Positions 14,635 to 60,643 of a DNA stretch of 64,000 nt are shown here, one piece after another. Location of the stretch: the NCBI GenBank assembly GCA_032718475.1, contig JAUCBJ010006900.1, positions 1 to 64,000 on the forward strand, read 5' to 3'. How positions within the stretch are numbered: the first letter of the stretch is position 1; every line of letters begins with the position of its first letter. The notes under the pieces were generated by a model. It did no database searches, was not told the origin of the DNA, and saw only the letters and a list, made by a program, of their open reading frames with translations. This stretch comes from Nemertoderma westbladi. Its lineage: Eukaryota > Animalia > Xenacoelomorpha. A program made the translations under genes and the position numbers.

Positions 14635-14637
14635 AAA

Positions 14638-27829: not shown

Positions 27830-29446
27830 ATCTGCTATCTGAGTTTGTTAATATCAATATAAGTTAATATTTTAGGCAAGCGGGCGTCGTTGCCTACTAG
27901 GCTTTTCGCCCCCGGACAGTGGGTTTCTCAGCGCCGATGTACCGTTGTCGCGGTGTTTGCGCCAACATGTAGCAACAGCACGACAACGATAATCGACACA
28001 AGTCCCACCACTGTCCGTCCCAAAGGCTTGAATCCACTTGAGGTTATCTCGGTAGAGTTAGGCTACTTTACAATTGCGATTAGCTACTGTAAACACACTT
28101 TAGTAGTATCATTCACCTATAAACGCACAAATTCCATACAATCATTACTTACTGCACACATGCAAGCCATTTTGTCCGTTAGTCATTGTCTTCCAGAATG
28201 TCACGTTATTACTATGTATCCTTGGATACTAATAGTGCGCTATGTATTCTCTTATGCTACGCAATGGGCAAGCCTTTTATTGTTACTTTAACTTGCTTCT
28301 AATTCTAGCGTGGGTGTTGCCATGGTGACATTATGGAAAACTAGCGGTAGAATTAGGGTAATTCTCATGCATACAGATCTGGGATGTTATTTAATAGTAA
28401 TTCTTTAATTGTCAATATCCTCTTTATGCATGATTTTATAAATTTTATCGGCTATTGACTATATATTGGAGATTCTCGCACTCTAGTACACTCAATATGA
28501 ATCTCCGCTCCCATGATCTATTAATTACTGGAATTTTGGGAATGTTGTAAATTGCACAAAATGACAATTTATGAAATTCATTCGAATATGAATTTAAATT
28601 TATTCCCGTGAATTTTATTATTTGATGTTAAATTTGACACAATTTGATTCCAGAGCAGGTCTGGGGACATAGGATCCTTAATTCTATGAAATTTGTCTTT
28701 TAAGAGTATCAGTAAGTGCTACGATATCTTAATCGACTAGAATTGTTAACGGATCTGAATTTTACAGATTTTAATAAATATTAAATTAATATTTAAGATG
28801 GGCACCGATTTATTCCAGAGCTTGTCTGGGGACGTTAACCACTGATTCTAGAATTTGTCTTTCAAGTATATCGGTGGGTGCCGCGATATCTTAATCGACT
28901 AGAATTACAGATGGTCAAAAGGTTTAACAGATTTATTTGCGTTTTACGCTACTGTTAGAGGGACATCACGCTACTATATGTATTATCTGTTATAAGGTAG
29001 AAGAGCAATATCGCACGAAGCAATGTCAGTGTGAAGAGGCAAGTCGTTTCCAAGGTCTACCCAGAGCTTGGTTTAGCCGAGACACGAGGATCTGAACTTT
29101 GCATTCCTAATACTCTGCCTACCAATAATACTTAAATATAGTAGGAGCTTTATTGTACTTTAATAAGTACGGACATGTCATCTTACTATAGTCTCGCATT
29201 TATAATATAATACGGACAGTAAGGAAAGAGAAAAGAATTATTTCTCGCCGTCGCACTAGATATATTATGTAATTACGTAATAAACACTAATATATTGCAC
29301 TAATCTACTAAATAATCTAAATAACATTCCACTAAATAAAATTAAATAAAACGATTATAATAAAGTACATAATAATCCATACCTAAATATAAAATAATAA
29401 TAAAAAAATATAAAATAATATAGTCACACACCCACTCCATATATAA

Positions 29447-31789: not shown

Positions 31790-31797
31790 CGTGTTAT

Positions 31798-33618
31798 TTA
31801 ATATCGAATTATCGGTATATAAATTTCTCGGATCATTATCAGGTCTATAGGGAATATCATTAATAACAGGTCTATAATCACCCTTAATAGGGTTTCAACT
31901 TCACTAGCAGTATAGATGCGTGTAGGCTCCACACCTTGCGCATGTAGTACTTCAGACCTAACAGGTTGACACAATGTTACAGGGGGTATTGGTATGCCCT
32001 TTTGTATATTGACTAATTTGTCGCGTTCTAGCGCGATACTTTGCTGCACTTCTTGCAACTCTGCTCTACCTTCCCTCACTGTTCCCTTAAGTTGGTGGAC
32101 AGTCTCCTGCATCTGTCCTAGCAGGAGATTCATCCCCCGCCGTCCCTCTTCCACCCACTCAACCGCCGAAGCGGGAGTCGCCAACATAGTAGCGGGCTGA
32201 CGCGGGACGACGGGAGACAAATTATTGATTTCTCTCTCTGCTATCTGGACAGGGGTATTTGCATGGACTGTTCCACCGGGTACAGGCAGTGTAGTACTAT
32301 GTAAAGGGAATTTAGAGTTAAGCTCTGGAAGTGTAGGGGTCTCTAGCACAGAAGTGACTTTGGGAACAACAGGCCTAATTATTTCAGGTTCATCGACTAT
32401 AGTAGGGAGTCTTTTGACCTGGATAAATTGTTCTATGGGTTCTGCACTACCTAAATCTGTGCTAGTTAGCTGTCTTTTAACAGCTGGGGGCAAATCAGGC
32501 AATTTGCGACGGTAATATGTTTTTCTACGCCTACTTAGATGAGATCTATTTCCTCCGCCTTCAGGGTCGGTAGTATCGCCTTCCTCCGAGGATGTGTACC
32601 CTTGGCGCTTGGGAGTAGATTTTCTCATCATCTGCATTTGATTAGCAGTAAACTGTTTATTTATACTGTCTTGTGTCTCTTGCAGATTTTCCAACTCCAG
32701 TTGGGTAGTCTGCTCAAATGCTCTCCTTTCTGCTTCTGCCACTGTTGCCTTTCTTTCGGCTTCCGCCGCTTTTCTTTCTTCTTCTGCTTCTGCCGCTTTT
32801 GCCTTTCTTTCGGCTTCTGCTTCTTTTCTTTCTGCTTCTGCTTCCGCCGCCGCTGCTGCTGCTACCTTTCTTCTCTCTATCAGTTCTTTCTTTACTTGTT
32901 CTTCTCGGACTCTAATGAGGCGGAGTTTTTCATCACATTCAGCTTGGTTTGCAGCTAACATTTCGGCATCGATTGCGTCCAACACAAGCTTGGTTCCTTC
33001 ACTATTAGGGGAAAGTCCAGACAGCCGTCTCCTCAACTCTTCGTCTCCTAGGAATCGCTGATAGTCGGACAAATAAATGTCGATAGCGTCTCTAGTTCGC
33101 GGCTTCTCTGCTGATGTTAATTCGCTTTCCACTTCGCTTTCCACCTCGCTTTCCACTTCGCTTTCCACCTCACTTTCCACTTCGCTTTCCACCTCACTTT
33201 CCACTTGAGAAGAAGTGGCGTCGGTTGATTCCCCACAGGCTGGCCGCCCATCATAAACCGTATCCGCCATCTTCGCTCCGCGTTCTGGCGTCCGCTCAAC
33301 AGTATCCGAACTACTGGAGCTATCGGGCCGCTGAGAACTAGGTTCTTGGCTAGGAGGTTGCTGCTGTTTTATAGCTTCTTCTTGATCCCGCTTGACTTGG
33401 GCCCGAGTGCCTATGGCAGACCAACGGCGCTTCACTAACTTCGCAAATTGCGAAATCTTTTCTACCAACCTAGGTTCTGTCACAACCACTGCAGGGGTTG
33501 CCCTTCTTACAGTATGAGGGGTTTCAGACCTCGGTCTGGGATTCTCTACACTTTGATCTGAGAAACAGGCTGTTGTTTCTAGGAGACTATCTGACAGAGT
33601 TTGCCTTGTGTCAGCCAT
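31798..33618 (-). pseudogene. gag: Long N-terminal gag extension (low-complexity/coiled-coil), frameshifted from the gag core
   Basis: Homologous to 37952-39949; (ESEV)n 12 bp repeats at ~33122-33207 and AEAERKA repeats. Confidence 0.8.
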
Positions 33619-35893
33619 GTTTGATTGTACAGTCGAATGCCTACTGCTATATTACAGTTAAAGCAAGTCTAGTAATTCAGTATCACTGTTAGCCTAATAA
33701 TTAATTACCGATACTGCTACTCAGTGTAGCGTGATATATATATAATATATTAGAATACCGGTATGCTTATAGTATATATAAGTATTATTACAGACTAGAT
33801 TTGTCACAGAGTACCGGTATATAAATTTAGCACAAATATATATAAATATATAATAGGCCTATAGTGAATACCGGTATACAGCTTACACTTACAGCATGTA
33901 AGTATAATTATGAACTAGAATTAATTACAGAGTACCGGTATGATTTCAGCTCAAATTTATAGAGATAAATATAATAAGCCTATAGTGAGTACCGGTATGT
34001 CAATTATTTTAGAATAATTGAATCTCTGAATATTTTAGGGCTACTTGGTTACTTTAACTTACTTTGTTACCGTTATTTAAGCAGTAGTCCAACTGATAGT
34101 GAGACCTAGTTTTTGTATGACAGGCCTACTATTTATAAATCGTTTGATTTGATTTATAATATTTATATACCCGTTATATGGGTTTTTGTCAATATTTGAA
34201 ATAAATGTTATTATTTCTGGGGGAGTCACTACACAGAAGCTGAACGCCTCTCAGTGAAGTGCTATTTATTTGACACTAAAACTGATAATTCTAATTTACC
34301 TAAGTTACTTAATACTACAAATTACTTACGATATGGGTGAGATTAATTCTCTAATTAAACACAACAAAATATTACGTACGAAATTTTTAGGGTAATTTTA
34401 CAGGAAGTCTACAAACCAGCCTAACAAAGGGTTAGAATTCTGGTTATTACTGTATTACAACGGACAGGGTACTACGGTATTTGAAAATAATAAGTAGTAG
34501 TAAATATACTGCGTTGTCCAGATAGGAAAATACCACCGCCTGACGACCTATAACCGTATCGCTATAGGTACTACGTTATGTATCACGGATTGTTCCTACC
34601 CAGAAGCTAATAGAGCTAACGAATGTGCCTATCAACCACTTTACAACACAAATATACTGCCTACACTAATTACTTCGGAAAGCACTGTACACTAAACCCT
34701 AAATTAGGTACAAGTACCGGTATAACAAATAATCAGTAGTTAAATATACTTGAACAGTTAAAAGAACCACGGCATTTGCTGGAGTGACCGAAGCACAAAA
34801 TCTCCAGTCTTTACCTACGCCGAGCAGCCCTGATGTAGTACCGGGGTTAGTTTAACTATAACGGTATGTATAACAAGCACAATTACTGTAGGAATAAACT
34901 TGGGGACATGAATGTTGCGAATAATCGCATAAACTCTGAATAATAAATATTACGCTACCCGTACAGAATACTCAAACAAATACAAACCAAAACGCTGGCA
35001 AACTACTATCAAGCCTAAACAAACTACAGTATGTGCAGATTCTGAAACTGTTAGTTAGTATGCGTTCTAACACGGTAGTACGACTTACTCTTTAAGAGGG
35101 GATTGTCCTTACAGCATATGGCTGCCCCAACTTACTAACGGCACTTGATCAGACCAACTCTACACACGCAGCAATCCCTTCAGACCTAAAAATAGCTAGA
35201 CAACAATCCAGCCTACAAATATTTGAGTAATAACTATTACGGTACCTGAACAGACCACACAAACAAACTCAGGCTAAAACACTGGCAGACTACGATCAAG
35301 CCTAGATAAACTACAGTATATGCAGATTCTGAAATAGTTAGTTAGTATGCGTTCTAACACGGTAGTACGACTTATTCTTTAAGAGGGGATTGACCCTACA
35401 GCATATGGCTGCCCCAACTTACTAACGGCACTTTATCAGACAAACTCTACACACGCCGTAATCTCTCCAAACTCAACAACAGTCAGACAGCAACTCAGCC
35501 TACAATTATCTGAACAATCTGAGCAGGGTCACACGCCTTCTGCTCAATATTAGCCTACTAGTAAATAAAACTGACAGAAATAGACCTAAGTAAAATCCCA
35601 ATAAAAACCAGGCGTCCCCGATTTAATATCGAGACCTACCGGTATACAATAATCAAAATCGAATAATACTAAATGTACTTGTACAGCAGTACCGGTACCA
35701 GTGATGACAGTTAGGCCTACTGACCTACAGAAGCACCGGTTCAGTTTTACCAGTCACTACGGTATTTTGCAACCTTATTGCCTACTGCAATAAGATTATT
35801 AACTGTTACTGTTCGACAGAACAGTATTAAACTGTATTTAATGCCTACACTTGCAACCTTATTGCCTACTGCAATAAGATTAATAACTGTTAC

Positions 35894-37122
35894 TGTTCGC
35901 GCTTTTGAAGACCTTTAGCAGTTTAACCTGCCAAAATTTATATGTCTTTTAGTTAATTAACACACCTTTAGCATACGACAATATTTTATGCTAATAAACA
36001 AAACATTAGCCGAAGCCAGCCCATGCGCGATCATTCACCCGATGGATCTACACCCGGGAGGCTGAATTCGGATGCTTAGATTTTATTATTGCAGTGTAAG
36101 GTTGCAGTGTAAACCTATTGTATTATTCGATAGATCACTAATATGTAATTTCTGACAGATATTATTAACTTTCGGGAAATATTAACAGTTCCTTTAGGAC
36201 GTGGCGCTCTATCTATTTAAACAGAGCTAGGACTTATACTAAACGCAACGATAAGGCTTATGATTAAAGTATAAGTCGCATTCTTTAGGAAATGCTTTGT
36301 TACCAGTCACATCACACTCACAATCATGCACACTATTCTGCCGACCGTCAGTATATTTGATCACACATAAAGAGAACAGCAATTGACTCACGTAGGGTCT
36401 GCTAAATAACATTGGATTCAATACACACCACATTAATATAAATCGCAATTGTTATGTATAGCCGGTCTCTCTAACCTGTAGTGTATCAAGAAAATTGGGA
36501 ATTTGGGTGATTTATCCGTATTATCCAAAGAGCAATATTTCCATCAACAAATAGGTACAATTAATAACTGACGGTAAATAGCAGTACAAACAATATGATT
36601 AGTGCAGTTAAATTAAGTGAGGTAACACCGCCGGTAACAGTTATACTTTCTATAATCTAAGCAGTTTTACTAGAGTTTCTAGAGCCGGTGTTTCTGGCTT
36701 AGACAGCAATAACAACAAAGTATCAAGTAAGAGCAGTAAGACTGAACACTCTCCTTATGATCGGCTGAAAAGCTACACGTCGACAGGAAAAATCGCTCTG
36801 ATTGGCTCAAGCCAAACAAAGAACCGTACATCCAATGGCTGTTTCCATGTCAGCAACCAGCTGTTAGATGTCGTAATATGAATCATCACGGCTAAGCTGT
36901 GAAAGGTAATTGGTGCATTACAGGTTTTTTGCCTTACCATGTCCGCCAAAACACGTATATAGCAGAATTACTTTTATGTCCGTTAAAACACCTGTAAAGG
37001 TACCTTGCGGGCGAGGGGAATATATATACAGTCAGAGAACCCTTTTAGAGTATTCCAGCGCCTGGGGGGAAACTGGATTGCGAAGCAAAAGGGGCCAGTT
37101 ATATCCCACAGAAGCTTTTACA
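35894..37122 (-). repeat. 5' LTR of inner large BEL/Pao copy
   Basis: Direct repeat of 25233-26461. Confidence 0.96.
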
Positions 37123-37951
37123 CCTTGTTAGGCTGGTTTGTAGATTTCTTGTAAAATTACCCCTAAAAAATTGTACGTGTAATTTTTTGTGTTTATGTAG
37201 AGATTGTAATCTCACCCCGTAATTGTACGTAATTTGTAGTAATAAGTAACTTAGTAAATTAGAATTATTTGTTTTAGTGTCCAATAAGTAGCACTACACT
37301 GAGAGCGTTCAGCTTCTTTGTAGTGACTCCTTACCAGAAATAATAACATTTATTTCAAATATTGTAACAAAACCCATTAAACGGGTATATATATATTATA
37401 AATCAACTCAAACCGATTTATAAAATAGTAGGCCTGTCATACAACAATTAGGTCTTAATATCAGTTGGACTACTGCTTAAATAACGGTAATAAAGTAAAG
37501 TAAAGTAACTAAGTAACCCTAAAAATTCAGAAATTCAATTATTCTAAAATAATTGACGTACCGGTATTTACGATGGGCTTATTATATTTATTTCTATAAA
37601 TTTAAGCTGAAAATATATACCGGTATTCTGTAATTAATTCTAGTCTATAATTATACTTATATATACTATAAGTGTAAGCTGTATACCGGTATTCACGTTA
37701 GGCTTATTATATATCTATATATTTGCGCTGAAATTATATACCGGTATTCTGTGACGATCCCTAATATCCTATCCGTAATAATACTTATATACACTATAAG
37801 TGTATACCGGTATTCTAATATATTGTATATATATCACGTTACATAGAGTAACGATATCGGTAATTAATTACTAGGCTAACAGTTGATACTGAATTACTAG
37901 ACTTGCTTTAACTGTAATTATAGCAGTAGGCATACAACTGTACAAACAAAC

Positions 37952-39949
37952 ATGTCTGACCTAAAGCAAAACCTGTCAGACAGTCTCCTAGATACAACCA
38001 TCTGTGACCCAGATAGGAGTGCGGAACGTTTGAGACCGAAGTTCAACTCCCCTCCTACTGTAAGAAAGGTCATCCCTCCAGTAGTAGTATCAGACCCTAG
38101 GCTAGTCAAACACCGTAGGTCTATCATAGGCACTCGGGCTCAAGTCAAGCGAGACCAAGAAGCAGCTGTTAAACAGCAGCAACACCCGAGCCGAGAACTT
38201 ATTTCTCAGCGGCCCGATAGCTCCAGTAGTTCAAATACTGTAGAGCTGACACCCGAGCGTGGAGCAAAGATGGCAGATGCGGTTTATTCGGATCCCCTTC
38301 TCATTCTTCCTGCAGCCGTACTCACTAGGGTATTGATTGCGGTGGAGGAACACCAAATCGATTGGGCGAGAAGTAAGCGATCGACCAAGGACAGTTATGC
38401 GGGATACACAAGGGAAGAACTGAAGTCTATTGTCGAGACGCAATGGAACTTCCCCGGACCCGGACTCCCGTTTCACTTATCGGAAGCTGCCTGGGAGGAC
38501 TTATACAGGATGGGAGTGACAAAAGACACTAGTGATCCAGCTGTGTGGAAGAGGTCGGCAGCAGGATATGTACAGGGATTCTTCAGCTCTTTGGAGCGAT
38601 TAGAGGAACAACTGTTTCAACAACATCAAGGACCTCAAGAGCAGGGAGAGCTGCTTTATCAAGTTCGAGTAAGAATCCTAAGAATCAGACTACTCCTATC
38701 AGCCTTTGAGGAAGCTTCGAAGAGAACCCAAGACACGTCGTTGCAAGTTGCCGTCAAGACTTGGTTCCAACGGGTGAGTCTCAAGGTTCAAGGAACGACC
38801 CAATGGAAATTTCAGCTGTCTGAGCGCTCAACCTACGGAGAATCAACAGACGCTACCTTTTCTCAAGTGGAAAGCGAAGCGACAGCAGAGAAACCTCAGA
38901 AGAAGGATGCTATTGACATCTATCTGTCGGACTATCAACGATTTCTAGGTGACGAAGAGTTGAGGAGACAGCTGGCTGGACTTCGTCCTAATAGTGAAGG
39001 AGCCAAGTTTGTGTTGGACGCAATAGATGCGGAAATGTTAGCTGCGAACCAAGCTAAATTTGGTGAAAGCAGCCGCATCGCTAGGGTTCAAGAATAACAA
39101 ATAAAGAAAAAACGTATAGAAGACAGAAAGACAGCAGCAGCGGCAGCGGCAGAGGCAGAAGCGGAAAGAAAGGCAGCAGAAGTGGAAAGGAAAGCGGCAA
39201 TGGCAGCGGCAGAAGCGGAAAGAAAAGCGGCCGAAGCGGAAAGAAAAGCGGCCAAAGTGGAAAGAAAAGCGGCAGTGGCAGCGGCTGAAGTGGAAAGAAA
39301 AGCGGCCGAAGCGGAAAGAAAGGTAGCAGTGGCAGAAGCAGAACGGAGGGCGTCTGAAGAGACCACCCAACTAGAGTTGGAAAATCTTCAAGAGAAGCAA
39401 GACTACATAGATAAACAGAGAACAGCTAGTCAGTGGCAGATGATAAGTCGATCTACTCCCAAAAGACAGGGATTTACATCATCTGATGAAGGCGATACAA
39501 CAGATCCTGAAGGCGGAGGAAATAGAACTCGTTCCAGTAGGTGTAGAAGAACGCCCCACCGTCAGAATTTGCCTAATTTGCCCCCAGCTGTGAGAAGGCA
39601 ACTAGCTAGCACAGACTTAGGTAGTACAGAACCCACAGACCAAATTATTAGAGTAGAAAGACTCCCTACTATAGTAGATGAGCCTGAAATAATTAGGCCT
39701 GTTCTCGAAGCCACCCCTTCTGTGATAGAGACCCCTGTACTTCCAGAACCTAACTCTAAATTCCCTTTGCACAGTACTAAACTACCTGTATCCAGTGGGA
39801 CAGTTCCTCAGTCAACTCCGGTCCTGGACGCCGAGCGAGACATTAACAATTTGTCACCCGTCATCCCTCGTCTACCCGCTACTATGTTGGCGGCTCCCAC
39901 TTCGGCGGTCGAGTGGGTGGATGAACGACGGCGGGGGAGAAGCCATTGA
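37952..39949 (+). pseudogene. gag: Outer-copy gag N-terminal extension (one in-frame TAA at 39095-39097), truncated by deletion
   Basis: ORFs 37952-39097 and 39182-39949 are in the same frame; homology to 33618-32130. Confidence 0.85.
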
Positions 39950-42785
39950 TGTGGCCAAAGGAACGGTAGAATGCTTAAAAAGAGGTGGATTTCGATTAAC
40001 TAAATTCACCAGCAACTCCCGTGAGTTTCTGGAGTCGATCCCGGTAGAAGATCGAGGAGCGAAAGACCTAGATCTAATCAAAGATGATCTTCCAGAAACC
40101 AAGACACTTGGTTTGAAATGGGACACAGAGAGAGATATCCTGTTTTTCCAGCTAAAACAGCGAGATAATCCAGTTCGGACTAAACGGATTTGTCTAAGTA
40201 TCCTGAGCACTTATTTCGATCCATTGGGATTTATTAGCCCAGTTATATTGATTGCTCGGAGTTTAGTACAACAAATGTGGCTTGAAAACCACTCATGGGA
40301 CGATCCACTTAAGGGAGAACTATTAAAGAAATGGATGAAATGGGAAGATTCTCTACCATCCATCGAGAACTTTATAATTTCCCGTTCATATTTTGGTCAT
40401 GTTCTCCCCACGTATTCCTATCAACTCCATGTGTTTGGAGACGCCAGCGATATTGGAATAGGTATAGTAGCCTACCTGAGAGTTGAAACTCCGGATGGAA
40501 TCAAGGTCGCCTTGGTTACCTCTAAGGCCTTGATAAACAACAAGTTGAAAGTTCCTCGAGCGGAGTTAAAAGCGGCTCTATACGCTACAGCCATCGGCCG
40601 GAATGTAACAGAACAGATCGACTATCCACTGGAGAAAACTGTCTATTGGACCGATGCTTTACTCGTGTTGGAGTATATAACCAATGAAGTCTGTCAGTTC
40701 AGCGTCTTCGTTACCAACAGAGTAGCCATTATACTTAGTCGCACGAAGATAGATCAATGGAGACATTGCCCCGGAACGATTAATCCAGCCGACATCGCCT
40801 CCAGAGGAGCAACTCCACAAGAACGGATAGATACTCCAGATTGGTTAGGTGGACCCGACTTCCTAAGCAAAGAAGAGGATGAATGGCCTCCTCATCTTAC
40901 CACGGCGGAGATTAGACAAGCCAAGGGAGCGGAGAAAGTCAAACCTAAAACCCGAGCGAGTAAATCGAAGTTATTTAAACCCGTGATAGATCTGTCTGTA
41001 CTACACACTTCCGGAGACGACGCTTTGGATCCAAAAACCCCAGCCACAAATAAGTCTGTTGTGGAAATCAGAGAGAGAGATTGGAAATCTGGAACACCAG
41101 ACGTCTCGCAGGGACTCTCACCCCTCCTGCAGAGAGCGATACATCACTATAGTTCCTGGAATCGGCTCTGTAAGGCCGTTACATATTTAAAGCGATGTTT
41201 TCATCATCACTACGCCAGGACGAAGAACACTAGTGATACCGCTCCACTGACATCTGCGCAGGTACATGTTGTTAAAGATCTTCCCAAAAACAAGATATCA
41301 GACAGATTTCTGAAGGAGAAGATCAGTTACCAGGAGCATGAAGAAACCAATAAGCAGATACTGAGACTCCTGCAATGCTATGAGGATTCCGATAAGTATT
41401 TCCTGTTGTTGAGAAATCCACAGATGCACTTAAGGGATCGTTTCTCTAGCACAATGATAGATGGGTTAATACGCGTTGGAGGAAGACTAACTAATGCTCC
41501 ATTATCCTTTGACACTAAGTTTCCTATACTCATTAGAAATCTTGAAATACAAATCAAGATGATTGTAGATGTTCACAGTAAGCTTTATCATGCTGGTAGA
41601 GAACGAGTTCTTGGCGAAATTCGAACTCGCTATTATTTTCATAAACCCCGTAGAGCTCTGAACCAAGTTCTTAGGAACTGCATACCCTGTAAGAAAGCAT
41701 TCAGTAGGCCTTTAACACAGCGAGAGGCAGAATTACCTAGGGAACGAGTAAGCTTCTATGAACCACCCTTCACAAATACCGGTGTGGATTTATTTGGCCC
41801 TATTGAAGTATATCGTGCTAGGACTATAGTCAAGAGATGGTGTGTCATCTTTGTCTGTATGACTTGTAGAGCTATCCATCTCGATATGGTGAACAATTTA
41901 TCTACCAATAGCTTCATATTGAGCTTACGCCGACTGATCGCTCGCTTTGGAACTAGTAACACGATGAGATCTGATAAGGGAACAAACTTCATTGGTGCCA
42001 ACAATGAAATCAAGGCTTACGTCAAAGATTGGAACCAAAGACAGGTGGACGATCAGCTAAGGGTAACAGCGTCTAGCTGGACCTTCAACGCCGCCGACGC
42101 CCCTTGGTGGGGAGGAAGTTGGGAGAGATTAATCAGGAGCGTGAAGACCGCATTTCACTTTATAGTGCCGTGCCGCACGTATCTCACCGACGAACTTTTG
42201 CGGACGTTAATGGAGGAAATCACCGCCTATCTCAACGAGAGACAGCTTATGCCAGTCTCATTGAGTCCCGATTCCCTGGAAGCGCTAACACCCACGCACT
42301 TCCTACTGAAGAAACCTGTAGCCATGCTCCCACGATCGGAAATCACGGACGGGGACGAATACTGCCGGCAAACTTGGCAACTTATGCAGTTGTTATCCCG
42401 TCGTTTCGCTGACCATTTCGAAAAACATTATCTGCCTACGCTACAACTTCGAACTAAGTGGTTTGCGCAGCAAGAAAACGTCAGCGCAGGAGACATGGTC
42501 CTTATTGTGGAGTCAGATCTTCCACGTAAGCGGTGGCAGACAGGTCGTATCATCGAGACTCATATCTCAGATGATGGTTTGGTGCGATCGGTAGAACTCG
42601 TCGTCATGCGATGTAACTTTAAGAAACCGGGAATTATCTTCGAGACGCAGCAGCTCAATCGCCCAGTTGGTCGTTTATGTTTACTGGAAAGAGACAGAGA
42701 ACTCTCCGGAAACTATGGAAGGCAAGATACTCTTCCCACGACCACCTCCCTAATCCAACCAACATCCAGGGACTCCCCAACGTGA
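39940..42785 (+). pseudogene. pol: Outer-copy pol fragment: RT thumb, Pao RNase H, integrase (RT catalytic core deleted)
   Basis: GGFRLTKFTSN, KTLGLKWD, TKRICLSILSTYFDPLG, LHVFGDAS, YWTDA, NPADIASRG, H..LYHAG..CIPCKK, TGVDLFGP, CMTCRAIHLD, SDKGTNF, APWWGGSWERL. Confidence 0.93.
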
Positions 42786-44246
42786 CAGCGTCTGGAGTGA
42801 CTATATTATTTCATCTATTTTTATTATTTTTATATTTATGTATGTATTATTATGTAATTTTATTATAATCGTTTTCTTTAATTTTATTTAGTAGAATGTT
42901 ATTTTAGCGATTATTTAGTAGATTAGTGCAATATATATTAGTGTTTATTACTTACTTACTTATATTATATTATATATTTAGTGCGACGGCGAGAAATAAT
43001 TCTTTTTCTCTTTCCTTACTGTCCGTATCATATTATAAATACGTGACTACAGTAAGATGAAATGTCCGTACTTATTAAAGTACAATAAAGCTCCTACTAT
43101 ATTCAAGTATTATTGGTAAGTAGAGTATTAGGAATGCAAAATTCAGATCCTCGTGTCTCGGTTAAACCAAGCTCTGGGTAGACCTTGGAAACGACTTGCC
43201 TCTTCTCACTGACATTGCTTCTTGCAATATTGCTCTCATACCGTATATTAAATAATACATATAGTTGCGTGATGTCCCTTTAACAGTAGCGTAAAACGCA
43301 AAATAAATCTGTTAAACCCTTTGACCATCTGTAATTCTAGTCGATTAAGATATCGCGGCACCCACCGATATACTTAAAAGACAAAATTCTAGTCCCCAGA
43401 CATGCTCTGGAATAAAATTATGTCTGTTTTAAGGATAAATAATAAAATTTACGGGAATAAATTTAAATTCATCTCTTTTAATGAACTTGATAAATTGTTA
43501 TTTTATACAATTTATAATATTCCCAAATTTCCATTAATTAATAAATCATGGGAGCGGAGATTCACCCTATTAAGTGTATTAGTGTGCGAGAATCTCCAAT
43601 ATATAGTCAATAGCCGATAAAATTCATAAAATCATGTATAAAGGGGATATTGACAATTAAAGAATTACTATTAAATGGCATCCCAGATCTGTATGCATGG
43701 GAATTACCCTAATTCTACCGCTAGCTTTCCATAATGTCACCATAGCAACAACCACGCTAGAATTAGAAGCGAGTTAAAAGAACAATAGAAAGCTTGCCCC
43801 ATTGAATAGCACAGGGAATAAATAGCACACTGCTAGTATCTAAGGATACATAATAATAACGTGGCATTCTGGAAGGCACTTGACTAACGGACAAATGGCC
43901 CGAATGTGTACAATTTGTGACAGTTGTGTGGAATTTGTGCGTTTATAGGTGAATGTTACTACTAAAGTGTGTTTACAGTAGCGAGTCGCAATTGTGAAAG
44001 TAGCCCTACCTCTGCAGTAAGAACCTGAAGTAAATCTTTGCCCTTGGGACGGACAGTGGAGTGACTCGCGCTGGTTATCGTTGTCGTTGTGTAGCTACTA
44101 CGTTGGCGAAAAACACAGCGACGACGGTACATCGGCGCTGAGGATCTTGCGCTGTCCGGGGGCCGTGAGGGGTAGGCAGCGACGCCCGCTAGCCTAATAA
44201 CCCTCTAATAAACTCATTATAATATTGATAAACTCATATAGCAGCT

Positions 44247-47200
44247 ATGACTGAGTTGATAGAAGATGATCTTGGTATCAGGGAGCGATATACTCTACCT
44301 TTACAAGCGTTTGTTGATAGCTTGATACGCGGTGACGCTAGTCCAACTCCTATGGAGGACGATGGTCGTTATATCGAACCGCCAATGTCCCAGGAACAAC
44401 TTACGCGTGAATTGGACTATAGAAAATTCACCGCTTGCTATACGCATCGTAATGGTACGTATATGGACTTCTTAACTACTGGCCATCCTATCGATTTACA
44501 CGATACGGACGATGTAGACACCGAAAGGGAAATGGTTTTATTTAAATATCATACCCAGCAGAGTCAGAACGATAAACCAGAATAGAACACGAGAATTCTA
44601 TTCGAAACCGACTCGAAAGAGAAGATGTTGAAGAGCCGGATAAACGCAGTGACTTCAACGATTATCTGGAATTCTTGAGAGAAACATATCTCAATATTGC
44701 CAGTCAACAAAATCTAGAAACTCGCTATCCTCAAGGTATACATCATGACCCTATGATAGAACTCAAACGGCTCTATTTCACTATGATGTATCTTACCGCC
44801 GATTGACCGCTACCTGTCGTCCCAGATAGCTTCGAACAGATGGAGGAATATTGTAAAACTGGAGAACGATCACCCGCGTTTCCCCTGCAGGACGTGCGTC
44901 TTTGGTATTACTACGACGAATGCCCTAGACCCAATCAGCAAACGGAAAGACATAAACATCCGCGGAGACGTTGCGCTAAACACAGTTTTACACGATATAC
45001 TTATGGGAGTTTCGAGCGAAACCTGTTCGACGTATCACCTACGCTCGCTCGACTCAAACGATCCTTAAATAAACCCATGATCAGAGTTCCGGAATACTTG
45101 GTCAGACCTGCTCATTCCTTAGTGAGACCTCAAACGCTTGATCCTAATAGTATAACGGATCCCCCTGAACTGTACTCACTATTTAAAGATCTTGTGTTAC
45201 CCGAACAATTAATCGGTGGCACTCCGGTAGTGGGCTCGCTAGATATTCGCCCTTCCTACCTAGCCGGATTGGGACGCGGGCATCTAATATCGCCGTTCAA
45301 CCCATACAATCGTCCCGGTTTAACCCCGATACAACCCGTTACCAAAGTCGAGGAGAGCGTTGTACGAAACGCGTTAGACGCTATTCGGCAGAAGATCGGA
45401 AAAGGAACCTACGATTGTTTAGACAAACGCAAATTACAGCAACAAGTCCAAGCAGTGAAGGAATTAGCTTTACCTCAGTTCGATCGAGAAATCCAGAACC
45501 TCGAGGAAGACATCGAACTTGGACGAACCTATTCTCTACAAGAGTTCCTAAACGAGCGTTTACAATGACAAGCGGTGGAAAATCAGCTCGAGGAGAAACA
45601 CATAGAAATGGATGAGAGAGAAGAAGCAGCTTTAGCCCAGCCAGAAGCTCAAATCCTTATGACTGATCTCTATTCTAAAACCATCATTCATCCTTCGATG
45701 GTTCCCCATTTCGGAGACAAACTCTTCGCCACGGCACAACCTCAACTGGTTGATATCAACCTAAGATCTCGGGATCTTATCGCTGACGCTCCTATGTTAC
45801 AACGTCCGCCAATCGAGGCCGCTCGTGTCGATGGTATACTCGTAGAACCTCCGGACAATAGAGCTGATCTCGTCCGTCGTATGGTACACGAGGTCAACAT
45901 ACGCGCTAGACCTTTACCGAACTCGTTTTATGGGATCAAAGATCACCCTTATTATGTCAATCTAACTCAATATTACATGGTAAAACCGGAAGATCCTACA
46001 CATAGTCTAAGGTTTCTACCACTAATAAATCCTCTCGATCTTGTCGAACTCGAACAACTGCAGAAACATCTGGATCAGTTAGTGAAAGTAAACTCATTCC
46101 GAAAACCCTATAATGTTTCCAGAATAGAGAAGGATATAATACCTCCGTATAATCTCGATGGATTTATCAAAACTCGATTAGTCCACTGGAATCTCGACGT
46201 GTTATTCGAGGAGGAGATCTAGAAAAGTATAGAGATCTACCTAACGCTAGCGAATGCGCCACCTTGTGGCATCCAGTGGGAATGACCCTAGAAAACGCCA
46301 CTAAAGAGTGGAACGAAACTCTTAACGTTATAGAGATGTATGGAGTTGTCACTTACGATAACGAAGGTAGCGTTCCGGTTGGAGAACTGGGAACTACGCG
46401 CATGATACATATACAAGGACTAGCTGGTTCTACCCACGTATTTACTCGAGCGTGTTCCGACGTGATTGATTATTCTTTTGAGACCCTCACCGAGATACAA
46501 AAGAAACTCCGACATGGACAATTCGAACTCGAGCAGCGTTACGTCACTGACACCGAGCGCAAACCGGCCATGGGTATCGATGGATCGATGTTACCCCAGC
46601 CCGTGCTCGAGATGTTGTTTAACGAAAGAATCCTTAAAATCGGCTCAGCTGTTTATGGAGATCTCCAAAACGACTTTAGGAACATGGAGAATATCCCATA
46701 TCCTTTCGTAGATACTCAGCTGATTGCTCCCTGGGCAGAAGGCCGAGGTTTCTTCCGCACTATGTATGCCAATACGCCCAGCGGTATCACTAAAAGTACA
46801 ATGAACTTCCATCGGACATCTTGCCTTTCAAGAATACGGATGGAATTTCAAGGTCGGAAACCCTATCAACTATCAACAAGTATATGGAGATCATTATTCT
46901 CGATTATACTTTGATTGACCATTGACCGTACCTGGTGTCGTGTATAGCTTCATGAGTGTTCCACTTCGTCCCTCCTTAGCTATATACACGATCTTTGAAA
47001 ACGCCACACTTGCCGGGTGGCTAGCCGATGTGTGCAGTCGTACTATACGCGCCCATCCCTTAATACTTGGAACCAAACTCGCCAAGCTATATGAACACAA
47101 TAAATTCATCCGCTTCGAATGCTTCAGGCGCTTTCTGACTCCGTTCCGTAACGTTGATAGTCAGTTCAAGGACCGCGCTCTGACTAAGCTCAGCCTAAGA

Positions 47201-48460
47201 GACTCAGCTGCTGAGAAGTTAGACAGCGCTGGATTCGCCATTTTCAAGGACATTTGTATACAGAACTTACATTCCTCTGTTATACAAAGACCTCGAATAC
47301 CCACAGGTTATTCTATCGTGGAAGTTCAGACAGTGGGTTCGCTTGAGGAGACAGCCGCACCTACCTCAGCTATGCAATTGGAAGACGAACCAATATGCTT
47401 AGAATCCGAGGAGATTCAGCCTACAGCGCCCCGGAGCAGCGACAACGACTACGTCTTGGAATGGTATCAAGGTACACAATGTCTCACCGCATACGATTAT
47501 CGGCACGCCAACTATGTTTCTCGAAAACGTTGCCGATTATGCACATCGAGAGATCATCTCACCCCCATGGACTCAGACGTACCCTGCTCCTATTTCCACG
47601 AACAACCGGCGATGGAGATTTATTGTGCGTATTGCAGACTCAATAACTTGCACATTTTCGCAGTCTGCCCCCAATTTATGACTCAATGCCATCATTGTCA
47701 ACTTAAAGGACATCCCAGTTTTGATTGCCCTTTTAACCGCGATCTGGAAAGTGTAGATGAAATGATTACACTACGCTACATCCGAGCTTGGGAAGCGAAT
47801 GCGGATTTACATTGTGAGTCACGCCATCGTTATTACCCTGGATGCGCCTACGAAGGAGTTTATGCATTCCATCCTTATCTATTCGCGTCTGTTGAACAAA
47901 AATCACGCACACCGAGTTACGAACTAATGAAGCGTGTTGGTGAGTGTATTTCAACCAAATTTGTTCGTAAATATCTCAGGAACATTAATCCTAACGATAT
48001 TAACTCCTATAACTTGATCAACTTCATCCGTCAAGACCCGGAGTATGGCGATTTGTTCATCAACTCGCATCCAGAGTTACAGGAAGTGCATCGACGGCCC
48101 TACGAATATCGAGCCCGAGAACGCGAGTTGGAAAGAACCATTAAACCGAGGAAGTTTCTCACTACTCACGGTCCACCTACTGCTATCGTTCAGACGACTC
48201 GTCTGGGACCAGTAGGAGCTGCTGTCCTAAAACGCGCTCTAAAGGCCGTTAGACTTTGCTCCACTGAGGTTGATATCGATCAACCAGGTACCTCGACCGG
48301 CGGATACACCGACTGTAATCCTAAACCTTCCAATGCAATTGTATTGCACCCTTCACCCAGGAGTTATAGCCCTCCTAGTAAAGTGGCTCGCCCCAAAGAG
48401 AAAAGGACTCTTGCTAGCCTCAAAAAACTGCGTAAACGCCGTCCGCGCAAGAAAGACTAA
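44247..48460 (+). pseudogene. Extra post-integrase ORF (~1300-1400 codons when joined): unknown N-terminus, DEDDy-like 3'-5' exonuclease, three CCHC-type zinc knuckles, basic C-terminal tail
   Basis: Contiguous ORFs 44247, 44840, 45575, 46264 and 46922 separated by single in-frame stops or frameshifts; VVTYDNEG, LPQPVLEMLFNERILKIGSAVYGDL, FVDTQ motifs; CRLC..H..C, CAYC..H..C, CHHCQLKGHPSFDC; KKLRKRRPRKKD. Confidence 0.75.
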
Positions 48461-48538: not shown

Positions 48539-49676
48539 TGTAAAGGCTTTTGCGGATCTAGCTAGTTATTTTCCCCGCAAAGTACTCTGTGTTTTAGCGG
48601 ACATAAAAAGCCATTTTTCTGTAAGTGTACTTTAGAGGACATAACAAGCCATTTTATGCCGCAATACGCCAAAATACTCTTAATACAGTGTAGTTCAGAT
48701 GACGACATCTATCAGCTGATATGTCGATGTGGAGCTTTTTGGCTTTCTTTGTTCGGCTCACTCGACCAATCAGAGCGATTTTCATTTTATCTTGTACAGA
48801 AGCCTACAGAAGATCGCGCAATGCATTATGGTCTTTGTTTACCTTTTTTCCTGAGCCCAGAACATCGGCTTTGGAATTATTCTGTGTTTCAGACTTTAGC
48901 CAAACATTAGAACGGCTTTGATCATAGAAACGTATAACTGTTATCAAGTCAAGTCACATCAACTCAGCATATCATACTATAAATACCTTTCACCACATTA
49001 TTTTACTGCTATTTACTGTCGGTTATTAATTGTTATCAGTTGATGGAATGTTGTTATATTTGGAGAATATCGATAAATAATCATAAAACCCCAATCTTCT
49101 TGATATACTGAAGGTTAGAGAGACCGGTTACATATAGCAATTGCGACTTACATTATAGTGGTTTTGGAGTGAATTGAATGCTATTTCATAGACCCTACAT
49201 GTGTCAGTTGCTGTTCTCCTTATATATGATTAAAATTAGTGAAGGTCGGCAGATCAGTGTGCAGCAGTGTGCGGTAGTGTGCATGAGTGTGATAGATAAC
49301 AAAGCATTTCCTAAAGAATGCGCTTTATACGAAAATCAATAGCCATCCCGTTGTGTTTAGTGTAAGTCATAACTCTGTTTACATATTTAGAGCGCCACGT
49401 CCTAAAGGAACTGTTAATATTTCCCAAAAGTGAATAATATTTGTCAGATATTATATTAATGATCAATCGAATAGTACAGTAAGTCTACACCGCAATAAGG
49501 TCAGAGCATCCGAATCCAGTCTCCCTTAACCGTGGGTGAATGGTCGCGCATAGGCTGGCTTCGGCTAATGTAACTTTATGTGTATCAAATACTTGTTATA
49601 GGCTAAAGTCGATTTATAACCTAGAAGACACCTAAAATTGGCAGGTTAAACTGCTAAAGGTCTAAAAGCGTGAACA
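48539..49676 (+). repeat. 3' LTR of outer large BEL/Pao copy
   Basis: Direct repeat of 22265-23405; preceded by short purine tract AGGAGCGG. Confidence 0.96.
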
Positions 49677-54868: not shown

Positions 54869-57800
54869 TATTAGAAAACAATTTATAACTGTGTCTCAAA
54901 CAACCTTTTAATCAAAACATAAAAAACGCTTTTCAAACTAGAAATAATATATCGTACAGTAAGTTACATTAACAGCTGATAGTCCATTTGAGTTTAGAAG
55001 ACAAACAAACGCCCATCACCAATATACATAGAGATATTACAAAACAGAACTATATTGTGCAATACAGTTTGGCAGAGTACTTGACGAACCAATAATAAAA
55101 TATTTCCAACACTTCCCCTCGTCAAGTACGTCAGTTTATCTTGAGATCTGAGATGAAATTTAACCCATCATTTTTGTTCTGAATTTTAAAAATTTTTCTT
55201 TGAATAGTGGTTTGGTCATAATGTCTGCGATCATATGTTCAGTTGGGCAATGTTTTAGAACAACAATCTTCTTATTAACCATGTCTCGAATGTAATGATA
55301 TTTAATTTCTATATGCTTAGTTCTTCCATGAAAACGTGGATTTTCCGATAACGCAATACACCCATTGTTATCCTCGAATAACGTAGTGCTCCCATTTTGG
55401 TCAATGCCTAAATCCCCCAATAAAGTTCTTAACCACACTAACTCCCTGGTGGCGACACTAGCAGCAATATACTCTGCCTCCGTTGTACTCTGAGCCACAA
55501 GTGTTTGTTTTTTACACGCCCATGAAATAAGTGAATCGTTCACAAAGAACAAATATCCAGATATAGATTTTCTATCATAGTTTCTTCCCCAATCAGCATC
55601 TACATATCCAACTAATTGAACACGGTTGTTTGATTGATCAGCAACATATTCAATGCCGACATCCATCGTTCCTTTAATGTATCTGAATATTCTCTTCACC
55701 GCTTTCCAGTGTTCCTCGCCTGGATTAGAACTGAATTGATTAACATTACTTAGTGCTGCAGCCAAGTCCGGTCTTGTAGCACAAACAGCATATGTCAGCC
55801 CTCCAATAGCCGCTTGATAACTCTTCTGATTAACTGACTCCCCTTCATTAAGTGACAAATTTGAATTGGCATCAAACGGTGTTGAGACAGTATTACAGTC
55901 TTGCATTCCAAACTTATTTAAGAGATCTTCAAGATATGCTTGCTGATTTAATTTTAATTTTCGATTATCGCGATCTCTTTCTATCTTGATTCCCAAGCAG
56001 TAACGTACTTCACCTAAATCTTTTGTATTAAATCGCTCTGAAATTGCTAATTTTTCTTCCTTCAACATAATCATGGAATTGGAGCAAAGCAGTAAGTCAT
56101 CTACATATAACGCCAATATTAGAAAGTTATTACCTTCTCGTTTTATATAAATACATGGATCTGCATGCGATTACATGTAGCCATTATCAACCAGATTGTC
56201 ATGCATTGCTTTATTCCAACAACGAGATGCCTGCTTTAAGCCATATATGCTTTTCTCTAATTTACACACTAAATGTTCATCTCCTTTGAGAATAAAATGT
56301 TCAGGTTGTCTCATGTAAATTTCTTCCTCTAAAACTCCATTGAGAAATGCCGTTTCAACATCCATATGATGAACTTCCAAGTCAAGTTCATTGGCTAAAG
56401 ATAGAATAGTACGAACAGATGTGTAACGAACAACAGGAGCAAAAGTTTCTTGGTAGTCAATATTGGGTCTGAGCAACGAGACGAGCTTTATATCGTTCAA
56501 TTTGACCATCACAACCTGTTTTCTCTTTAAAAACCCATTTACAACCCACAGCATTTCTTCCTTCTGGCAATTCAACTAATTTCCACGTGTCATTCTTTAT
56601 CAACGAGTTATATTCCGTTTCAAGAGCCAATTTCCACTTTTCACTGTTCACACTATTGAGTACTTCATTTACTGTCTTTGGCGTTTCTCCTGACACAGAG
56701 AAAACCATATTCTCGAGATTCTCACCTTCTATCCAATCCCCATATCTATCTGGTTGTCTTTTTATGCGTGTAGATTTTCTTATAGACGATTCAGCCGATT
56801 CATCATCATGGACTTTGTCATTTATGGTTGTCCCCTTAGCTACAATAGGTTCACTCTTAATGATATTTTCCACATCATTATCCACATTGATCACTTCATC
56901 ACACTCATTGATAATGTCACTTGTACTATGACTAATACGTCCATCGAAACTTAATTCATTAAACTTAATATCACGACTTGTTGATACCTTTTTTGTATCC
57001 TTATTATATACTCTATATCCCTTCCTTTCACAATCATATCCAACGAACACATGTTTGACACTTTTAGCATCCCATTTCTTCCTTTTTTCGTCTGGAACAT
57101 GAACCCATGCGTCACACCCAAACACTTTAAACTCATCTACTGATGGTTTAACTCCATAAAAACATTCATATGGTACTTTAGAACAAACGGCTTTGGTTGA
57201 ACAGCGATTGTTTATAAACGCAGAAGTTAGAACAGCTTCTGCCCAAAATGAAATAGGTAGTTTAGCATATTGTAAAATTGCTCTCCCACTTTCAACCAAA
57301 GTTCGATTTTTTCTCTCAGCTATTCCGTTCTGTTGTGGTGAGTAACAAACAGTCATCTGTCTTAATATGCCTTTTTTCCTTAAAATAATTTTTGAATGCA
57401 TCATTGACGTACTCTGTTCCGTTGTCAAAGCGTAGTTTTTTAATTAGTTTTCCTGTTTGTCTCTCTGCCATATGTTTATATTCCAGAAACTTGTCTATCA
57501 CTTCGCTTTTGGCCTTCATAAAATATACCGCACAAAATCGAGATTTATCATCGATAAATGTCACAAAGTATCGATTCCCACCTAATGATACTTCAGACAT
57601 GGGACCGCATACGTCAGAATGAACAAGTTGTAGAACACAATCGGATTTAGAGCTACTTTCCTTTGGAAATTCATTTCTGGATTGTTTTCCCAAAACACAT
57701 CCTTCACAAAATTTCAACTGATCTTTCGTATTTAAGTCAATTCCATGTACAAATTCATCATTAAACATTTTTCTTAATGTTTGTTCATTGACATGTCCAA

Positions 57801-59632
57801 GGCGACAATGCCACAAATCTATGTTTGATTCAGATTGAGCAAAATTTACCTCATGTTTCTCTTTATTTACGTGGCCTTCAAGCTCATATTGATTACCATT
57901 CTCGGGAATTTTTGCAGTGATTAATAATTTATTGCTTTGTTCGCTAAATACATTACACATGTTCTCACTAAACACGACTTGGCAATCATGATTTGTTATT
58001 TTCTTCACTGATAATAAATTTTGACACAAACTCGGAACAAATAAAACATTCTCAAATTGACATCTTTTAATCATAAATGCATCATTTAAATTGTTCCATT
58101 TAACCATTCCAATACCCAAAGCTTCAACAGTTTCATTATTAGCTAAATGAATGACACTGGGATTTTGTAATTCAACGTATTCATGAAAATTATCACGTTT
58201 ACAGCACATATGTTGCGTAGCTCCTGAATCTATAAACCATTTACTACTATTATCATTTTTGTGAGATATTCCATTGCTCGATAAACACCAAAAGGTAAAA
58301 TCATTCTCATCGTTTTCTAATCGAACTACATTAGCACCTTGGTTTGATAAACCAGAACTTCCTCTACTGTTCGTACTCGTAACATTATTATCTGGCCGTG
58401 TGCAGTATCTAGCTATATGCCCATATGTACCACAATTGAAACACCTTGGCGATTGGCCGAAGCTGTTCCTAGCACTGTAACTATTATTATTATTATTAGA
58501 ATTACCTGCATTTCTAGGCCAGCTGCTACCTCTTCCTCGAGCACTACCTCCGCGAAGTCCTCTGTTCCATGACGCACGACCTCTACCTTGATAATTACCT
58601 GAAGCAGCATTGGCAAATAAAGCATCATTTTCGTTTGAATCAAATTTATGTGTTTCTTTCTTTTTTTGTTCTTCCATTAATAATTTTTGTCGCAGAAATT
58701 ATATAGATAGATCATTAGACATTTCTAATGTGCTTACCAGCATTTCGTACGATCTTGGTAAACTAAGCAGTAATTCCCATATTTGCTCTTTTTCCGGCAC
58801 ATTTGCTCCAATAGCATCCAGTTGAGCCGTCAATTCCTGATGCTTATTGATATGACTCATCATATCGTCGCCTTCTTGCATAACAGCGTCTCTATACTTT
58901 CTTTTATAATAAATTATATTTTGCATCGTTTGCATTTCGAACTGAGTCTTCAATCCATTCCACGCGTCTAATGCAGATGGTTTCCCCATCACTAGAGGTA
59001 ATTGTGAATCGGCAAGATGCAAACTAATTTCTGCGCGAGCTTTCTGATCTTTCTTCAACCATTTTTGAAACGCATCGCCTGCTGCTTGTGGTGCGGGTTC
59101 ACTACCATTTACAACATCCCACAGATCCATTGAAATCAGTACCATTTGCATTTTATGCTTCCACATAAACCAGTTTTGTCCTGTAAATTTATCAGTACGT
59201 AAACCAACTTTATATTCACTGGACATCCTCACAAGCTATATTACTCAACATAAATTTACTCTCAATTCTCAATAAAAGTTATACAGTACATTGTAATACA
59301 CAGTACGACAAACACAGTTCACATCATTTTACCCATACAACAGAGGTCGGTTAGTACATGTTGTAATTAAACGTCCTGGGCCCATAACCTATTAGAAAAC
59401 AATTTATAACTGTGTCTCAAACAACCTTTTAATCAAAACATAAAAAACGCTTTTCAAACTAGAAATAATATATCGTACAGTAAGTTACATTAACAGCTGA
59501 TAGTCCATTTGAGTTTAGAAGACAAACAAACGCCCATCACCAATATACATAGAGATATTACAAAACAGAACTATATTGTGCAATACAGTTTGGCAGAGTA
59601 CTTGACGAACCAATAATAAAATATTTCCAACA
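54869..59632 (-). mobile_element. Ty1/copia LTR retrotransposon (4764 bp, 243 bp LTRs)
   Basis: LTRs 54869-55111 and 59390-59632, identical by eye; ATTAT TSD 54864-54868 and 59633-59637; PBS GGTTATGGGCCCAG (59376-59389); PPT GAGGGGAAG. Confidence 0.97.
55160..59232 (-). pseudogene. pol: Copia gag-PR-IN-RT-RNase H polyprotein with 2 nonsense codons and 2 frameshifts
   Basis: NWFMWK, CFNCGTYGHIARYC, WFIDSGATQHM, WHCRLGH, VHSDVCGP, PQQNGIAERKNRTL, YKARLVA, HMDVETAFLNG, SIYGLKQ, LYVDDLL, YVDADW, STTEAEY, HIEIKYH, ADIMTKPL. Confidence 0.95.
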
Positions 59633-60643
59633 ATTATTCATATATTATATTATTCATATTTCACGTAAGGGCGATATTTATTGACAAATAACACAATGTT
59701 TTTACCAGATAGTTCGACTGTGACAGGATCGAGGGATCCCGACCGGGTCTAGTAAGTACGCGTCACAGCAGGCTGATATGTCGATGAAATATAAAAGGTT
59801 TGAGTTCGGTGTTCAACTGGTAGACTGATAATATAATATGAACTATTGATAGCATACAGGCATAGGAGCAATAACCAGAAATAATATGTAGGCCTATAGC
59901 AGCACCGCAATGACGGTCGAACTATGTCGCCGGTCCATGGTAAACTGGTGACTACTGAGTAAACTGACCGGTAGTGGGGCATGCAACATGATATATAGGT
60001 TACTGCACTTGTGGCCTTGTTACTCAGTCGATGCTTGCCCCCCATTGGCCAATAACCTAATTCTCGCCCTCCTATCTCTCTGGGAGTGTTCTCCCCTTGC
60101 TACTGTCATTCTCTCTCTCGGAGGTATCTTGACCTCTAACCTCTATTGTGCGAGGCCCTTTGGGGTTTGTCGTCCCCGTTTATTTGGGTGATACGAGGTT
60201 GATTGGCAATCAACCTCGTACTCCCCAATATTGCTTAAAGGCGCTCTTTCCCACTTTATGGGGGTTGGTGAGGCGGAATTGAATACGCTCACACTCCCCC
60301 CCATGCTATCTTCCCAGTGAGAAGATAGCATCAACCTCTAAGTGCGCTTCAATTCCGCTGGAAACTCGATCTACTATCGGGTGTGGGGTGGATTTATTTT
60401 TCTTTGGAGCTGGCTTTCCAGGCCGCTCCCTATGGGTATGATAACGCTACCCAGTCTGACGTCTAGTGTCGGGCCGATTGTGGACTCTCACACAATTTTG
60501 TTTCCCCAACACTCTCACCACTCTAACTCCGCTCTAACTTCTCCACTCGAACTCCGCTCTAACTCCGCTCTTACTCTCTCCCCACACCTGAATCGCACTC
60601 TTCTCTCTCTCACCAGCAGCTCCTCTCCATACTCCTCTCTACT

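Follow-up and report, generated by a model that had tools for sequence, protein, structure and literature searches.

A putative DEDDy-type third gene behind the integrase of a BEL/Pao retrotransposon from Nemertoderma westbladi

What is encoded by the more than four kilobases that lie between the integrase and the 3′ long terminal repeat (LTR) of a BEL/Pao retrotransposon in Nemertoderma westbladi? The element lies in a stretch of 64,000 nucleotides (nt) that was analysed as a whole (the window; contig JAUCBJ010006900.1, positions 1 to 64,000 of the forward strand, assembly GCA_032718475.1). An earlier note made from the letters of this DNA had proposed an extra gene coding for a WRN/Mut-7-like DEDDy exonuclease with three CCHC knuckles and a basic tail. 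This third gene has been maintained by selection in active lineages and has decayed in the window copy, and its central domain looks closer to RNase D/Rrp6 than specifically to WRN/Mut-7.

The third gene runs from an ATG at 44247 to a stop codon ending at 48460 (4,214 nt, about 1,404 codons); 1,461 nt separate it from the integrase stop, and 78 nt from the 3′ LTR. The placement between integrase and LTR was as first described, whereas the supposed near-continuity over some 4.2 kb gives way to seven breaks in the window copy: frame changes near 44580, at 46217-46225 and at 46792 (the frameshift formerly put at about 46800 exists and lies nearer this last position), and stops at 44804, 45566, 46802 and 46916. 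Other copies differ at six of the seven. The break near 44580 is absent from a related copy nested in the same element, and those at 44804, 46217-46225, 46792, 46802 and 46916 differ in contigs of the runs; at 46792, clear contrary copies occur in runs X4 and X5, and runs X1 and X3 have mostly loose ends there. For the stop at 45566, there was no differing copy among the rows listed (40 of 1,863). A single long reading frame across the family is likely, with the following parts, for which dN/dS denotes the ratio of nonsynonymous to synonymous substitution rates and HMM a hidden Markov model:

44247 to 46224, plus strand: N-terminal part of the third gene, about 650 codons; dN/dS 0.17 over its first 108 codons
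46345 to 46368, plus strand: ExoI-like motif VVTYDNEG (Asp 46357, Glu 46363), third-ranking of 760 places
46591 to 46731, plus strand: ExoII-like block with Asp 46660, and DTQ motif; NCBIfam RNase D at E 0.0026, 16.3 bits, both blocks ranking first (of 743 and 759 places)
46904 to 46999, plus strand: ExoIII-like region, with registers Tyr 46943/Ser 46955 and Tyr 46985/Glu 46997; rank 3 of 749, insignificant alone
47195 to 47257, plus strand: HRDC-like stretch of 21 residues (first helix and loop); rank 1 of 748 as a block, HMM domain score 2.2 bits
47531 to 47728, plus strand: three Cys/His knuckles; 11 of 12 ligands retained in the nested copy, dN/dS 0.08
48422 to 48460, plus strand: basic tail and stop codon; basic stretch 48422-48457, also in the nested copy

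All motifs on which the exonuclease proposal had been built were recovered at their places, namely VVTYDNEG with Asp 46357, the ExoII-like stretch (46591-46665), FVDTQ (46705-46719), a segment beginning SIGHLAF (46808-46852), another beginning LYFD(stop)PLT (46904-46957), and the tail. Asp 46357, Glu 46363 and Asp 46660 correspond to three of the DEDDy acidic residues. Among the 18,950 models of NCBIfam, both top matches were RNase D, lying over the ExoII block at E 0.0026 and 0.016 and far below their cut-offs. A profile of 20 proteobacterial RNase D domains scored 16.3 bits at the same block; 295 of 1,000 shuffled sequences obtained any score with this profile, the maximum being 4.5 bits. 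The Escherichia coli RNase D sequence was weak when used alone, its score being attained by 25 of 2,000 shuffles. The gene was also scanned with ungapped blocks, taken from 57 sequences for the exonuclease and 29 for HRDC, with the ranks given above and the helix block at 43 of 757; in the initial scan, the ExoIII block lay outside the top four places. As an ordered chain, the blocks reached 42.2 against a shuffle maximum of 16.6, and the chain without ExoII and DTQ reached 19.0 against 13.4 (none of 300 shuffles reached the score in either case). The RNase D profile, NCBIfam and the ordered blocks agree on the DEDDy-type pattern that had been proposed, and the domain is very probably DEDDy.

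The narrower WRN/Mut-7-like label was not borne out. A WRN-like stand-in profile, composed of 20 shorter bacterial PF01612 matches whose WRN-like label is itself inferred and which include no eukaryotic WRN, EXD or Mut-7 sequences, scored 5.6 bits against the 16.3 bits of RNase D, and an NrnC-like profile (17 sequences) gave no match. Behind the exonuclease part comes an HRDC-like block, and the predicted layout is that of RNase D/Rrp6. The HRDC-like block itself is probably genuine. The domain as read from its sequence would work like an RNase D-group protein, and it departs from the active DEDDy enzymes at ExoIII.

In DEDD enzymes, loss of the fourth acidic residue sharply lowers activity. 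Where Tyr-x3-Asp is expected, the third gene has Tyr-x3-Ser in the better register and Tyr-x3-Glu in the second. The cores of the two registers tie or nearly so, and the downstream helix prefers the Ser register by 5-13 bits in all three profiles, all scores being negative. Private decay is an unlikely cause of Ser 46955, since no single base change makes its codon acidic. On balance, the catalytic activity is judged rather likely to be weak or absent. The former description as an element-encoded RNA-binding nuclease is upheld as far as a DEDDy-type domain and knuckles are concerned and becomes doubtful for catalysis, with Ser at the fourth acidic position in the better register.

With regard to the remaining parts, three Cys/His knuckles are present as claimed; the third alone follows the canonical pattern CX2CX4HX4C, and the other two read CX2CX4HX9C and CX2CX5HX4C, and Pfam zf-CCHC_3 reaches 19.4 bits (E 0.00098), below its cut-off of 27. 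The basic tail is likely a nuclear or nucleolar signal. A short basic Cys/His stretch also occurs near 44950-44985 within the N-terminal part. Across the seven pieces of the gene, the maximum 19-residue Kyte-Doolittle mean is 1.17, in keeping with the earlier statement that the protein is not env-like; an env identity was rejected for want of a membrane segment (by hydropathy only, with no dedicated signal-peptide predictor).

The evidence for selection comes from two sources. Between the window copy and the nested copy, and thus on two copies only, dN/dS is 0.17 over the first 108 codons, 0.08 over 178 codons around the knuckles and 0.22 over 128 tail codons, compared with 0.85-1.76 in shifted frames of the third gene, 0.31-0.39 in gag and 0.69-0.82 in the spacer that precedes the third gene. 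None of the in-frame values lies near 1, the outcome that the earlier note had set against its own reading, and the constraint is, by these ratios, tighter than that of gag. Synonymous distance between the two copies reaches 0.6 with a dN of about 0.05. Since the nested copy is without the exonuclease part, constraint there was judged from the run contigs: among 40 listed variant places (of 210), 29 are polymorphic among copies, 25 of them at third codon positions (p 6e-9), and the other 11 are private to the window copy, falling on codon positions 1, 2 and 3 in 5, 4 and 2 cases. A chance open reading frame (ORF) was ruled out by the codon pattern.

The element that carries the gene was found by self-comparison of the window and lies on the plus strand, with a related element nested in its leader:

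22265 to 23405, plus strand: 5′ LTR, TG...CA; 98.2% identity to the 3′ LTR, with a 5-nt target duplication flanking the outer sides
25233 to 37124, minus strand: nested related element with 100% identical LTRs, sitting in the leader of the outer element
37901 to 39949, plus strand: 5′ part of gag in two frames, cut short; resembles the gag of the nested copy, dN/dS 0.31-0.39
39729 to 42785, plus strand: 3′ part of pol through integrase; Pfam Peptidase_A17 3e-36, Integrase_H2C2 5e-7, DUF5641 3e-20
42786 to 44246, plus strand: AT-rich spacer, 1,461 nt, between the integrase stop and the third gene; no codon signature against the nested copy
48539 to 49676, plus strand: 3′ LTR, the pair of 22265-23405

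The assignment to BEL/Pao, on which the Pfam gag and pol domains agree with the earlier note, follows from Peptidase_A17, Integrase_H2C2 and DUF5641 here together with DUF1759 in the nested relative. The LTR length of 1,141 nt and the 5-nt duplication are those of BEL/Pao elements (TG...CA, 0.2-1.2 kb), and the gag and pol domains are typical of the family with integrase last, as judged by domains in a copy whose reverse transcriptase (RT) is mostly deleted. In the frames of the outer copy itself, there was no Pfam match to DUF1759, protease or RT families, which means that the outer copy is missing the 3′ portion of gag together with the larger share of pol as far as late RT. Once the nested copy is subtracted, the element measures 15.5 kb despite this gag-pol deletion. 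It thus differs from the ICTV profile of the Belpaoviridae, in which elements are 4.2-10 kb and any third gene is env-like (PMC8742986), the third gene here having no membrane segment. The nested element was inserted very recently; gag and protease are still there, and what it lacks is RT, RNase H, integrase and, within the third gene, the exonuclease part. Its third-gene deletion joint recurs in contigs of two other runs (X4 and X5). The family is very abundant, with 52,958 contigs of one run (X1) aligning to 7.2 kb of the element.

Several side observations concern the same element and its surroundings. The spacer at 42786-44246 is 84-87% identical between the two copies, is conserved like the coding parts and is retained in the deleted copy. 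Within the AT-rich stretch 44191-44249, a CAG stands two bases ahead of the ATG at 44247 in both copies and is a possible splice acceptor for a subgenomic mRNA. A solo LTR lies at 17533-18720 (minus strand), and a third, more distant family member is represented by its 5′ end (60644-64000). Elsewhere in the window, a satellite of 52-54-nt units occupies 900-8900 and 14640-17500 and is broken by insertions; an element at 8827-14907, whose 270-nt direct repeats are identical and whose long ORFs (9227-14266) lie on the minus strand, is inserted in it, and another element at 54869-59635 has 246-nt direct repeats and minus-strand ORFs.

The priming of the element is of relevance to the possible role of the third gene. 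A TGG start after the LTR was found in none of the three copies with a leader, and the position of the primer site is instead complementary to a stretch of the LTR itself:

22664 to 22674, plus strand: LTR-internal 11-mer complementary to the primer-site position, 11 of 11 paired; putative 5′ end of the transcript
23406 to 23416, plus strand: primer-site position, complementary to the LTR 11-mer and not opening with the TGG of a tRNA-type site

In each copy, the 11 nt that immediately follow the LTR are matched by the homologous site inside its own LTR, with pairing at 11, 11 and 10 of 11 positions (22664-22674/23406-23416; 36644-36634/35893-35883 on the minus strand; 61086-61096/61836-61846), and compensatory letters between copies maintain the complementarity. 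Control 11-mers from the leaders match in 0, 6 and 3 of 1,749 cases. Predicted folding of the 11-mer with the primer site gave full pairing in one of the three copies, a shifted partial pairing in another and none in the last. If transcription starts at the LTR 11-mer, the complementarity would constitute the self-priming signature of Tf1/Tj1, in which the primer site can likewise pair with part of the LTR of its own element (PMC4600332, in part); Tf1/Tj1 are Ty3/gypsy elements, whereas the element of the window is BEL/Pao. It also departs from the tRNA-Arg or tRNA-Gly priming given in the Belpaoviridae profile (PMC8742986), having the self-complementary 11-mer instead. Some 15-45 nt beyond the 5′ LTR (23421-23447), a hairpin is predicted in two leaders, with similar arms in the third; it may be a packaging or priming structure. 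A link between the third gene and self-priming is possible.

As for function, we tentatively favour, at somewhat less than even confidence, a predicted soluble protein of about 1,400 residues that would be a weak or dead look-alike of Rrp6, binding and shielding the element's own RNA in the nucleus. The shielding role is preferred because of the basic tail, the tightest constraint at the knuckles, the RNase D/Rrp6 layout, the doubtful fourth acid and the lack of a membrane segment. Like genes in the env position, it would be translated from a separate mRNA, either spliced or with an internal start, and the basic tail would carry the protein into the nucleus. The knuckles and the HRDC-like part would hold single-stranded RNA (compare the knuckles of TbRND, described below), and the exonuclease pocket would grip RNA 3′ ends without efficient cutting. 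With its ends occupied, the long genomic RNA might be spared from host 3′-5′ decay until it is exported and packaged. The protein would act in trans, deleted copies riding on intact ones. Action in trans is favoured by the recently inserted nested copy, from which the exonuclease part and the bulk of pol are missing; this copy moved in spite of these losses and its joint recurs in runs X4 and X5, so the domain would be dispensable in cis.

Several points weigh against this proposal. Expression, localisation, RNA binding and target are all deduced from sequence. Only the ExoII block is individually significant, the blocks were picked after the sequence had been seen, ExoIII alone yields no HMM match, and the HRDC-like block, at its 2.2 bits as an HMM domain, has no Pfam match. 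The Pfam profile match that had been called for was not obtained, neither PF01612 (also with X at the breaks) nor PF00570 being matched, and no structural match came from the low-confidence models: single-sequence folds with predicted local distance difference test (pLDDT) scores of 30 and 33 were unusable, and Foldseek on the first found no match at E 0.001. No homologue was detected in a set of 5.8 billion proteins with pieces of 513, 216 (longer targets) and 171 amino acids, nor among 1.84 billion representative proteins with a piece of 215 amino acids. Metagenome and viral contigs contained nothing related to the exonuclease piece, the knuckle piece or the integrase, and a PDB sequence search gave chance matches or none; a weak PHROGs exonuclease family (E 0.079) fell on another stretch and is not used as evidence. 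The N-terminal 650 or so codons are unexplained by family matches, with none in Pfam, NCBIfam or PHROGs and no usable match in an Atlas search of 44807-45565. The 40 of 210 variant places listed are too few to establish Ser 46955 for the family, the Glu of the second register could give an active D-E-D-E site, and the three retained acids and Tyr are, as sequence, equally compatible with an active enzyme.

An active enzyme is the basis of the next explanation, in which a 3′-5′ exoribonuclease would finish RNA ends during replication of the element by trimming a single-stranded overhang to the duplex after the self-primer cut or at the 3′ end of the genomic RNA, as RNase D does on tRNA. Such 3′-end processing was suggested for the DEDDy ORF3 of rotifers by its authors (PMC5408684, in part). 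Asp 46357, Glu 46363, Asp 46660 and the Tyr are all present, the second register supplies a Glu together with an RNase D-like spacing to the HRDC block, and the 11-nt primer site can pair with the LTR of the same copy, three copies bearing compensatory changes. The Ser register nevertheless outscores the Glu register and, to our knowledge, Tf1-type self-priming requires no extra nuclease; it employs the RNase H of RT (PMC4600332, in part). Active trimming is regarded as rather unlikely. A possible counter-defence against small RNAs was the main idea of the earlier note; the protein would bind or trim piRNAs or siRNAs, or compete with host DEDD-fold factors of that pathway. Host proteins of this fold do function in small-RNA pathways (PMC5408684, in part) and the family is very abundant, but the layout is nearer RNase D/Rrp6 than the WRN-like stand-in and the strong purifying selection bears no sign of an arms race (in two copies only); no evidence for counter-defence was found in this analysis, and it is considered improbable.

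Slightly less probable again is an export adaptor of the Rev/CERV kind, for which the nuclease fold would be a mere scaffold and the protein would carry unspliced genomic RNA from the nucleus. The CERV gene of Cer1 stands in the env position and is expressed from a spliced mRNA; its product carries a basic signal and a loop rich in Cys, and export requires it (PMC10309623, in part). The third gene has the possible acceptor immediately before the ATG at 44247 in both copies. No sequence link to CERV has been seen, though no comparison was made; a DEDD-like nature of CERV is not mentioned in the part of PMC10309623 available, and three retained acids are unnecessary for export. Recent capture of a host gene, or passenger DNA in decay whose motifs arose by chance, would account for the seven breaks, the lack of a Pfam DEDD match and the transposition of the nested copy without the exonuclease part. 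It is nonetheless very improbable: the 5.8 and 1.84 billion proteins contain no host-like relative, where a recent Rrp6 or EXD copy should surface, synonymous distance is up to 0.6 at a dN of about 0.05, and the gene is present family-wide in four runs. Recent host transduction, which the earlier note had named as a refuting outcome, was ruled out by the missing close relative in the protein sets and the deep synonymous divergence. The shielding look-alike of Rrp6 remains the tentative preference.

An abundant lineage with constraint above that of gag argues that the module is of real use to retroelements, and the doubtful active site beside predicted RNA-binding knuckles and the self-priming signature makes evasion of the nuclear exosome and primer finishing the two roles to consider. 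On a bolder view, which we hold to be doubtful, a giant self-priming BEL/Pao lineage, beginning DNA synthesis from its own RNA, would have swapped env for a 1,400-residue Rrp6 mimic that finishes this primer or jams the nuclear exosome; the module would be the one carried by gypsy and Penelope-like elements, and so a tool common to three retroelement classes. In the open literature (without Repbase, GyDB, subscription papers or supplements), no BEL/Pao exonuclease gene turned up, the matching papers being the rotifer study and reviews that discuss it, and the word exonuclease occurs 0 times in the main texts of PMC3118150 and PMC2774666.

Among cellular enzymes, E. coli RNase D and Rrp6/EXOSC10 share the block order of the third gene (ExoI, ExoII, DTQ, ExoIII-like, HRDC-like). 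The block spacings are 101, 98 and 80 residues in the third gene and 57, 70 and 68 in RNase D, compared with which the third gene is without the fourth Asp and has added knuckles and a long N-terminal part. Rrp6 has an exonuclease followed by HRDC (PMC7797062, in part) and is likened here by layout, without alignment. TbRND of Trypanosoma brucei resembles the third gene in having an RNase D-type exonuclease followed by RNA-binding tandem CCHC fingers, and differs in that it is a cellular enzyme whose set of four acids is complete and which has four fingers and, in the part of the source available, no HRDC (PMC7797062). CERV of Caenorhabditis elegans Cer1 shares the env position, a non-env nuclear protein (nuclear by prediction in our case) and a Cys-rich, RNA-related part; its host is a gypsy element, and no nuclease domain is described for it in the available part of PMC10309623.

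The closest precedent, correctly pointed to in the earlier note, is provided by the bdelloid rotifers, where DEDDy third genes are known in the LTR retrotransposons Juno and Vesta and in Athena/Terminon (PMC5408684 and PMC6431247, both in part). Rotifer ORF3 and the third gene are alike in being non-env and placed after pol, in having an RNase D-like DEDDy domain with an altered acidic motif and no membrane segment, and in that activity has been assayed in neither. The rotifer motif is DEED (PMC5408684, in part), while the third gene has D-E-D-S or D-E-D-E; HRDC has 0 mentions in the main text of PMC5408684, whereas the third gene has an HRDC-like block. Variation in rotifer ORF3 was reported to be mostly neutral (PMC5408684, in part), in contrast to the strong purifying selection in the present family, the genes being compared by description. 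The rotifer hosts are gypsy-like or Penelope-like (PMC5408684, in part); what appears to be new here is a DEDDy-type third gene in BEL/Pao, a family whose described third genes are env-like.

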